Positions 1 to 1,065 of a stretch of 1,065 bases of DNA are shown one piece after another. The DNA is from a phage. Numbering within the stretch: position 1 is the stretch's first letter; every line of letters begins with the position of its first letter. The notes beneath the pieces were generated by a model. That model saw only the letters and a list, made by a program, of their open reading frames with translations. It made no database searches and had not been told where the DNA came from. The stretch is taken from the sequence record OR846431.1; one strand, written 5' to 3'. Both the position numbers and the translations under genes were made by a program.

Positions 1-252
1 AAACCTTATCTTACGCAGGTAGCTATTATGCTGAAATGGGTGTGTCAATCAGCTTCAGCAAATACATATTATGACCCACAGATTTTTCCAAAAGGAAAGG
101 TTCCAATGTCTGTAATGATTGATGACATGCTATACGGATGGTATTATGGCATTAAAAACTTCTACTATCATAATACTCGTGATGGTTCCGGTACTGATGA
201 TTATGAAATAGAAACTCCAAAAGCCGATGATTGCGCAGCGTGTAAATTGTAA
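1..252 (+). CDS. nrdA: Ribonucleoside-diphosphate reductase large (alpha) subunit, C-terminal 83 codons (5'-partial; gene continues upstream of the window)
   Basis: Frame 1 has no stop between base 1 and the ATG at 28, so the ORF extends off the left edge. Translation KPYLTQVAIMLKWVCQSASANTYYDP...IKNFYYHNTRDGSGTDDYEIETPKADDCAACKL* has the class Ia alpha-subunit C-terminus: a YY pair (nt 163-168) in a YYxNTRDG block, corresponding to the radical-transfer tyrosines Y730/Y731 of E. coli NrdA, and a C-terminal cysteine pair (CAAC, nt 232-243) a few residues before the stop. Stop TAA at 250-252. Identification is by recalled similarity to the E. coli NrdA C-terminus, not a search. Confidence 0.92.
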   Translation, partial: KPYLTQVAIMLKWVCQSASANTYYDPQIFPKGKVPMSVMIDDMLYGWYYGIKNFYYHNTRDGSGTDDYEIETPKADDCAACKL

Positions 253-983
253 TGAATTATCAAAAAATCTATAACGACCTAATTTCCCGAGCTCAGGCTC
301 GGGAATCTTTACTAGAATATAAAGAGACACATCATATAATCCCTAAATGTATGGGAGGTTCTGATGATAAGGAAAATTTAGTTGAATTAACAGCCAGAGA
401 ACATTTTATAGCTCATCTATTACTATGTAAGATAAATGAAGGCCATTTTGGTCTTGCCTCTGCGTTAACGTTAATGGCAACAGATAAAGCTGGCAATAGA
501 ATTAATAACAGATTATACAGCTTACACAGAAAATTATTTGCTAAAGCTAATTCTGAGTTCTTTAAGAAATATTGGAAAAATAATCCTCATCCTAAAGGGA
601 TGCTAGGCAAGCATCATAAAAACGAAACTAAACAGCATGTATCTAACGTGAATAGATATGCGTGCCCATCTGTAGAAATACATAAATTCTCATTAGATGG
701 GGATTTCATAGAAACCTTTCACTCTATTGCGGCAGCGTCCCGGTCAGTTAATGGAAACGGGTCAAATATCAAATATTGTGCCGAGGGTAAATTTCAATAT
801 GCTTATGGATTTAGATGGTCATATCAACTTGATGCAAAGTTTGACAAAATAAAACCAAGAGATTATAAAGGAATCCGCGGTAAGAAATGGATTAATAATG
901 GAAGTGAATGCACGCTTATAGGTAAAGATGATATTATACCGCTAGGTTGGAAACACGGCAGAATTTTAAAGAGGAAAAATTAA
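252..983 (+). CDS. mobE: Free-standing HNH-family homing endonuclease (243 aa) with NUMOD3-like and NUMOD1-like DNA-binding modules
   Basis: Complete ORF from ATG 252 to TAA 981-983. Residues 25-57 (ETHHIIPKCMGGSDDKENLVELTAREHFIAHLL) form a canonical HNH (His-Me finger) motif: HH at aa 27-28, GG, Asn42, His51-x3-His55. Downstream are GKHHKNETKQH (NUMOD3-like), DGDFIETFHSIAAASRS...GFRWSY (NUMOD1/IENR1-like helix-turn-helix) and a basic WINNG...PLGWKHGR tail. The gene sits between nrdA and nrdB, where T4 carries mobE; the symbol is assigned by synteny and family only and was not confirmed by alignment. Confidence 0.9.
   Translation: MNYQKIYNDLISRAQARESLLEYKETHHIIPKCMGGSDDKENLVELTAREHFIAHLLLCKINEGHFGLASALTLMATDKAGNRINNRLYSLHRKLFAKANSEFFKKYWKNNPHPKGMLGKHHKNETKQHVSNVNRYACPSVEIHKFSLDGDFIETFHSIAAASRSVNGNGSNIKYCAEGKFQYAYGFRWSYQLDAKFDKIKPRDYKGIRGKKWINNGSECTLIGKDDIIPLGWKHGRILKRKN
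284..310 (+). terminator. GC-rich stem-loop (9-bp stem, 4-nt loop) followed by a short T-rich run; candidate intrinsic terminator or attenuator inside the 5' end of the endonuclease ORF
   Basis: TTCCCGAGC (284-292) pairs perfectly with GCTCGGGAA (297-305) around loop TCAG (293-296); the core 7 bp are 6 G:C plus 1 A:U. It is followed by TCTTT (306-310). It sits 32 nt downstream of the nrdA stop and 30 nt into the endonuclease coding sequence, in otherwise AT-rich DNA. The U-tract is short and interrupted, so termination would be partial at best. Confidence 0.45.
324..422 (+). other. HNH catalytic motif (His-Me finger) of the endonuclease
   Basis: Codons for E25-L57. Catalytic and metal-ligand candidates: H27 (330-332), H28 (333-335), N42 (375-377), H51 (402-404), H55 (414-416). 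All are intact with no frameshift or stop. Only two cysteines occur in this part of the protein (C33, C59), so a CxxC...CxxC structural zinc site is not evident. Confidence 0.85.
597..644 (+). other. NUMOD3-like DNA-binding motif (GMLGKHHKNETKQHVS)
   Basis: Matches the recalled G-K-H-H/S-x-E-T-K-x-K/H-x-S pattern of NUMOD3 repeats found in GIY-YIG and HNH homing endonucleases; judged by eye, not by HMM. Confidence 0.55.
687..824 (+). other. NUMOD1/IENR1-like helix-turn-helix DNA-binding module
   Basis: FSLDGDFIETFHSIAAASRSVNGNGSNIKYCAEGKFQYAYGFRWSY follows the recalled pattern (DG-x-F/I ... S-x-x-AA ... I ... G-F/Y-x-W-x-Y) seen in C-terminal DNA-binding domains of phage homing endonucleases such as the I-TevI HTH region; judged by eye. 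Confidence 0.5.
841..869 (+). promoter_or_regulatory. Candidate sigma70-type promoter (TTGACA-N17-TATAAA) inside the 3' part of the endonuclease ORF, oriented toward nrdB
   Basis: Exact -35 consensus TTGACA at 841-846, a 17-nt spacer, then TATAAA at 864-869 (5/6 match to TATAAT). The predicted start would be near 876-878, about 105 nt upstream of the nrdB ATG. It could be a chance match in AT-rich DNA. Confidence 0.3.
913..937 (+). promoter_or_regulatory. Weak candidate T4 middle-type (MotA-dependent) promoter: imperfect MotA box plus -10 TATTAT
   Basis: CGCTTAT at 913-919 is an imperfect match to the MotA-box core TGCTTtA (5/7), followed 12 nt later by TATTAT at 932-937 (fits TAnnnT). The spacing is right for a middle promoter, with a predicted start near 944, about 39 nt before the nrdB ATG. 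The box is degenerate, so confidence is low. Confidence 0.2.
968..975 (+). promoter_or_regulatory. Shine-Dalgarno / ribosome-binding site for nrdB (AAGAGGA)
   Basis: Purine-rich AAAGAGGA at 968-975, with the GAGG core 8 nt upstream of the nrdB ATG (983). It lies within the last codons (K-R-K-N) of the endonuclease ORF. Confidence 0.7.
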
Positions 984-1065
984 TGTCTACAGTTTTTAAT
1001 ACAAATCCAGTTGATGTTTTAAAAGAACCCATGTTCTTCGGTTCAGGTCTTGGTATTGCGCGTTA
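983..1065 (+). CDS. nrdB: Ribonucleoside-diphosphate reductase small (beta) subunit, N-terminal 27 codons (3'-partial; gene continues downstream of the window)
   Basis: ATG at 983-985 preceded by a GAGG Shine-Dalgarno at 971-974 (8-nt spacer). Translation MSTVFNTNPVDVLKEPMFFGSGLGIAR contains the LKEPMFFG block typical of the N-terminus of class Ia RNR beta subunits (E. coli NrdB has ...LKEPMFFG... near its N-terminus). The frame is open to the end of the window. Confidence 0.9.
   Translation, partial: MSTVFNTNPVDVLKEPMFFGSGLGIAR

Follow-up and report, generated by a model that had tools for sequence, protein, structure and literature searches.

The C-terminus of a phage ribonucleotide reductase (RNR) raises the question of why its two last cysteines stand closer together than those of the E. 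coli enzyme, and whether this spacing has anything to do with the redoxin by which they would be reduced. The tail is encoded at the start of a 1,065-nt stretch of phage DNA (sequence record OR846431.1, hereafter the window) and closes on Cys-Ala-Ala-Cys-Lys-Leu. All class I RNRs carry at their C-terminus a pair of redox-active cysteines that is reduced by thioredoxin (Trx), glutaredoxin (Grx) or NrdH (PMC6187632), and these shuttle cysteines reduce the active-site disulfide and are then re-reduced by the redoxin (PMC6187632, PMC4078304). In E. coli, residues 754-761 have been named 'the CX4C motif', while the tail past Q742 is disordered and unresolved in cryo-EM (PMC11067019). The original prediction set the two-residue spacing of the phage against an E. 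coli ending given as ...CESGACKI, with four residues between the cysteines, and proposed a possible adaptation to the phage's own glutaredoxin, NrdC. This E. coli ending is right: R1 chains in the PDB, such as 2r1r_A (761 aa), end in ...YYQNTRDGAEDAQDDLVPSIQDDGCESGACKI.

The nrdA 3' end and its neighbourhood

The last 83 codons and the stop codon of nrdA, which encodes the alpha subunit of a class Ia RNR, occupy positions 1..252 on the plus strand of the window. Frame 1 of this segment translates to KPYLTQVAIMLKWVCQSASANTYYDPQIFPKGKVPMSVMIDDMLYGWYYGIKNFYYHNTRDGSGTDDYEIETPKADDCAACKL followed by the stop, the C-terminal part of this product being ...GIKNFYYHNTRDGSGTDDYEIETPKADDCAACKL and its last 31 residues (nt 157-252) NFYYHNTRDGSGTDDYEIETPKADDCAACKL. 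Fragment residues 3-57 matched PF02867 (Ribonuc_red_lgC) with 29.7 bits (Pfam; cutoff 23.9), at profile positions 475-523 of 523, so that only the end of the domain is carried by the window, and the 83-aa fragment matched E. coli R1 structures in the PDB with E=2.7e-17 (HMMER). Tequatrovirus phages, EC101 and SH7 among them, match the window DNA with 99.2% identity, and in these phages the matching segment runs from the nrdA 3' end through a homing endonuclease gene into the nrdB 5' end; the gene is annotated as nrdA in phages with 99% DNA identity to the window. The aligned C-terminus of the EC101 NrdA (754 aa) equals the window translation, and E. coli R1 aligns with residues 5-753 of this protein (E=2.5e-258). 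FSSCV, SNLCxEI and LCTLSAF, the active-site motifs, are kept in EC101 NrdA relative to E. coli R1, and the residues corresponding to E. coli C225, N437, C439, E441 and C462 are all conserved, these sites being located upstream of the window.

The Tyr-Tyr radical-transfer dyad is encoded at 163..168 (plus strand; corresponding to E. coli Y730/Y731 and to residues 726/727 of the 754-aa protein). It aligned with the YY of E. coli R1 and was invariant in both multiple alignments of NrdA tails described below (A1 and A2), which bears out the conservation originally claimed for it. The dyad is followed at 169..249 (plus strand) by the flexible acidic C-terminal tail, HNTRDGSGTDDYEIETPKADDCAACKL, which lies outside the Pfam barrel domain ending at fragment residue 57. 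Within this tail, the CAAC redox-shuttle pair is found at 232..243 (plus strand; Cys749/Cys752 of the 754-aa protein), with a TGC codon (Cys) at 232-234, two Ala codons at 235-240, a TGT codon (Cys) at 241-243, Lys and Leu at 244-249 and the TAA stop at 250-252. The CxxC tail predicted from the letters was thus confirmed both by direct reading and by translation. HMMER aligned the two cysteines with E. coli C754/C759 across a 2-residue gap (C..AAC vs CESGAC), and both Cys columns were invariant across the alignments of diverse NrdA tails (A1 and A2). A metal-binding CxxC was also considered as a candidate and dropped, because the window has a single Cys pair and this pair is aligned with the known shuttle pair.

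With the end of the barrel domain, the YY dyad, the C-terminal Cys pair and an adjacent nrdB, the window presents the features by which class Ia RNR alpha subunits are recognized; the cysteine pair fits NrdA/R1 and its redox activity is predicted. The likeness to E. coli R1 covers the end-to-end alignment with EC101 NrdA, the YY dyad, the acidic residues before the first cysteine and the Cys-Lys-(Ile/Leu) ending, whereas the residues between the cysteines are ESGA in E. coli (ending DDGCESGACKI) and AA in the window. Overall, the tail of the window is three residues shorter, as the first cysteine stands 22 instead of 23 positions from the second tyrosine and the loop lacks a further two residues. 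In phage T4, the NrdA tail (NP_049845, ...PKADDCAACKL) is identical, and the last 50 residues are equal except for one Val/Ile exchange.

T4 also has the same gene order (nrdA, mobE, nrdB) and the same TAATGA stop/start overlap. In the window, this overlap lies at 250-255, where the nrdA stop runs into the ATG of a free-standing mobE-type HNH homing endonuclease ORF (252..983, plus strand, 243 aa), identified from the ORF list, from Pfam (NUMOD1, 25.9 bits; HNH, a weak match of 19.8 bits) and from the mobE/homing endonuclease annotation in related phages. Its own stop (981-983) overlaps the ATG (983-985) of nrdB, the RNR beta subunit gene (983..1065, plus strand), which is annotated in the matching phages and is 90% identical in DNA to the beginning of T4 nrdB; both overlaps are of the TAATG form. 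The UAAUGA overlap is known for T4 mobE, for which translational coupling has been suggested (PMC2988022). A terminator-like hairpin at 284-305 (plus strand; TTCCCGAGC-TCAG-GCTCGGGAA, then TCTTT), within the endonuclease ORF at its 5' end, corresponds to a weak intrinsic terminator that has been described inside the T4 mobE 5' end (PMC2988022). The two phages differ in the endonuclease gene itself: DNA identity to T4 is about 95% over nt 1-421, and megablast aligned only 1-421 (95%) and 982-1044 (90%), so that the last two-thirds of the endonuclease gene (~560 nt at its 3' side) had no T4 alignment by this program. In the T4 reference (3717-4417), mobE with 141 aa and nrdB.1 with 83 aa are annotated in place of the single intact HNH/NUMOD1 ORF of 243 aa found in the window.

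An effect of the mobE insertion on the NrdA tail was rejected, as phages that lack it share the spacing and the ending with those that carry it. In IME08, nrdB directly follows nrdA with no endonuclease gene between them and the tail is CAACKL like that of T4; T2 is also without the insertion and its tail is CSSCKL.

Cysteine spacing in phages and their hosts

The spacing of the last two cysteines was surveyed in three kinds of samples. A HMMER search with the 83-aa fragment against 1.84 billion cluster representatives gave 286 matches, and among the best 150 of these CX2C was found in 70, CX4C in 60, CX3C in 6 and CC in 4. By these representative counts (70 and 60), CX2C and CX4C are the two spacings commonly seen among NrdA-like proteins. 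A word-indexed protein search with the same fragment returned two 48-aa fragments only and was uninformative. For named phages, the tails of 18 phages taken across the tblastn identity range were translated. For the genome scans, a 22-sequence alignment (A1) was too diverse, and the narrower A2 was used instead; its peptide pattern restricted the bacterial scan (species-representative bacterial genomes) and the viral scan (IMG/VR viral contigs) to tails preceded by YY[HQ]NTRD. Each scan consists of the 80 loci most similar to the window, and both samples are biased in this respect.

CX2C was present in 17 of the 18 named phages, including all 12 sampled genera of Straboviridae, in which the motif reads CAAC in IME08, Melville and Mineola, CSSC in T2, Vettismorki and Aragogtheria, CESC in Pm5461 and Cronus, CAGC in phiKp_17 and avDM6, CDAC in AC4, and CEGC in Nando. 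It was also found in the sampled Kyanoviridae cyanophage (Synechococcus), in one Kuttervirus and one Asteriusvirus, in Caulobacter phage Cr30 and in ICP1. The sole CX4C tail in this sample belonged to the jumbo Vibrio phage vB_pir03 (CAGGGC). Among the best 80 bacterial loci, all of them from gamma- or beta-proteobacteria, CX4C was counted 74 times, CX2C 5 times and CX3C once, while the best 80 viral contigs had CX2C in 56, CX3C in 11, CX4C in 8 and CX1C in 5 cases. After identical fragments were collapsed, CX2C accounted for 42 of 59 viral and 4 of 73 bacterial tails; the Fisher p-values of the viral-vs-bacterial contrast (~8e-18 for 56/80 vs 5/80; ~1e-17 to 1e-16 overall) describe these biased samples only and ignore shared ancestry. 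The window itself does not follow the E. coli-type CX4C pattern C-[AED]-[GS]-G-[AG]-C, and its CAACKL ending has the CX2C-type arrangement with the last cysteine two residues from the C-terminus.

The difference in spacing between the phage and E. coli is therefore systematic rather than a feature of one strain, with 17/18 named phages carrying CX2C and 74/80 of the closest bacterial loci CX4C. The same CxxC spacing in E. coli and its relatives, which would have left no phage-specific difference to explain, is not what was seen, and the observation stands. Among E. coli-like NrdA, CX4C is the usual spacing of cells and CX2C that of T4-like phages, as read directly from sequence, homology and the spread of spacings.

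All five bacterial CX2C loci came from Photobacterium, on chromosomal contigs of 188-710 kb. The Photobacterium NrdA ends in DDCTSCKI, and over its C-terminal 208 residues it shares 87% identity with Aliivibrio NrdA and 80% with Vibrio NrdA, two CX4C proteins. Nested as it is among CX4C Vibrionaceae, the Photobacterium CX2C indicates that a cellular lineage made the same 2-residue change. The CTSCKI ending was also observed on four IMG/VR contigs of 141-176 kb. In two of these (L151 and L170) the NrdA C-terminus resembles Vibrionaceae NrdA (~70% identity) more than the T4 type (51%); judging from these similarities, the shared CTSCKI may stem from an exchange of nrdA, or of its tail, between phage and host.

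Other parts of the tail vary to different degrees. The last cysteine stands exactly two residues from the C-terminus in 160/160 loci retrieved and in almost every complete tail among the 150 representatives; together, the invariant Cys columns and this fixed distance to the end argue that the pairing of the cysteines is not due to chance. The C-x-x-COOH ending is more constant than either the Cys-Cys spacing or the linker length; the last cysteine is usually followed by K, T, S, A or V and then by I, L or V. Relatives differ in the distance from YY to the first cysteine (14-44 residues), and the intervening pair of the phages varies as well (AA, SS, SA, ES, DA, AG, EG, DS, DT) while the spacing and the C-x-x-COOH ending are kept. 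Viral tails ranging from CX1C to CX4C and freely varying intervening residues point to a tolerant loop. Among the less common forms, CX3C was seen as DDCGDACK[LI] or DDCGDSCKI on five viral contigs of ~64-110 kb and as ECDGACKI on six further viral contigs, the latter tail being present also in a Kluyvera sp. genome contig that may represent a prophage or a second copy, and CX1C was seen on five contigs as YDCGCK[IV] after a long Pro/Glu-rich linker.

The prevalence of CX2C in the unrelated Straboviridae, Kyanoviridae, Ackermannviridae, ICP1, Cr30 and Asteriusvirus speaks for the view that the spacing tunes the shuttle itself, through disulfide ring strain, redox potential or the speed of active-site exchange, to the high dNTP flux of infection, whichever redoxin is used. 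The disulfide ring also differs in size, with 14 atoms in CX2C and 20 atoms in CX4C. This view is, however, at odds with the CX1C, CX3C and CX4C tails that occur among viruses as well, such as the CAGGGC of vB_pir03, and with the fact that CX2C is common to slow-growing eukaryotes, and we consider such tuning very improbable.

The probable redox shuttle and its redoxin

The tail of the window is most probably an ordinary C-terminal disulfide shuttle with a CX2C spacing inherited within its lineage. By analogy with established RNR biochemistry, the Tyr-Tyr would be a step of the radical pathway, followed by a flexible acidic tail that leads to Cys-Ala-Ala-Cys-Lys-Leu; at each turnover this tail would enter an active site and reduce the disulfide made there, would itself become a disulfide, and would then be re-reduced by a redoxin. 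In T4-like phages this redoxin would be the phage glutaredoxin NrdC, and from the T4 literature the enzyme of the window would be expected to be reduced by it too; T4 is known to deliver its own redoxin (PMC6459318). As to the spacing, CX2C would be a trait passed on through the T4-like phage lineage, with CX4C being the form of E. coli and of most gamma- and beta-proteobacteria, and it would represent one of the two common class I RNR spacings in a loop that appears to accept 1-4 intervening residues. The shuttle role is the most likely one for this tail on the basis of its sequence, and nothing contradicts it. The claim that the spacing is due to inheritance and nothing else is weaker: the phage-vs-host contrast is strong (56/80 vs 5/80), although it comes from biased samples with shared ancestry, and the phage spacing may have a functional reason.

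By the explanation put forward in the original prediction, the shorter CX2C loop belongs to a phage reductase co-adapted to its own glutaredoxin; NrdC would then reduce the tail well, and host thioredoxin would do so poorly. All 12 of the 12 sampled Straboviridae genera have CX2C, NrdC homologues occur across the same genera (e.g., in the Melville, Klebsiella, Acinetobacter, RB49 and RB43 groups), and the NrdA of Straboviridae hosts is CX4C. E. coli thioredoxin was reportedly a poor donor for the T4 RNR in work by Berglund in the 1970s. The interaction surface of the T4 glutaredoxin has unusual elongated loops (PMC5947528), and glutaredoxins are usually without cross-reaction to heterologous RNRs, according to PMC6187632, which cites Holmgren 1989. 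IME537 and JoYop, close matches to the window, encode an NrdC 100% identical to that of T4, nrdC itself being located outside the window. However, the joint presence of CX2C and NrdC in Straboviridae counts as a single clade-level event and not as a correlation, and co-adaptation and shared inheritance are for this reason inseparable there.

CX2C also occurs outside this clade. Photobacterium has CX2C on its chromosomes with no T4-type NrdC evident, and the sampled Synechococcus phage and Kuttervirus have CX2C although few matches of the T4-NrdC type were found in their groups, in which other redoxins are possible. A tblastn search with the 87-aa NrdC as query found homologues in 1510 phage records, mostly T4-like, a count from which divergent redoxins are missing because such a short query is insensitive. 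Compared by organism-name counts only, which is how the co-occurrence of NrdA and NrdC was followed, Synechococcus had 377 NrdA records and was not among the top-ten NrdC organisms (smallest entry 32), and Salmonella had 206 NrdA vs 32 NrdC records.

The same spacing is also at home in enzymes that are far from T4. In eukaryotic R1 (yeast Rnr1 and mammalian RRM1), CX2C is a named motif, indispensable for regeneration, on which thioredoxin and glutaredoxin both act (PMC6382339, PMC4078304), which again counts against a spacing fitted to NrdC. The eukaryotic enzymes differ from that of the window in a C-terminal insertion of ~100 residues before the motif (PMC6382339), as compared with only 21 residues from YY to the first cysteine, and EC101 NrdA is much less similar to human (E~1e-72) and yeast (~1e-63) R1 than to E. 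coli R1 (~1e-258). Conversely, the CX4C enzyme of E. coli is more efficient with Grx1 than with Trx1 (PMC5947528), so CX4C is not a thioredoxin-only tail. The viral tails, moreover, span CX1C, CX2C, CX3C and CX4C, and redoxin specificity has been ascribed to electrostatic and geometric complementarity of the surfaces, not to loop size (PMC5947528). Our literature searches found no statement linking the spacing of the T4 tail to NrdC. Taken with these points, co-adaptation to NrdC appears improbable, and somewhat less probable still is the stronger form of the claim, in which the loop, two residues shorter, is the specificity determinant that couples T4-like reductases to NrdC and shields them from the thioredoxin pool of the host. 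CX2C is not phage-specific, and nothing was found that ties it to NrdC.

Meaning for the reductases of T4-like phages

The CX2C of the T4-type tail is a real and already known lineage difference, and the small descriptive addition made here is the pattern of phage-vs-host spacing, with occasional switches. For the ordinary shuttle with inherited spacing, the consequences hardly go beyond annotation: the nrdA sequence of T4 has been openly available since 1988 (Tseng et al., as cited in PMC2988022), and both CX2C and CX4C are named in the RNR literature. If, on the other hand, the spacing did set the preference for a redoxin, it would provide a sequence marker for which redoxin a viral RNR uses and for its draw on the reducing power of the host.
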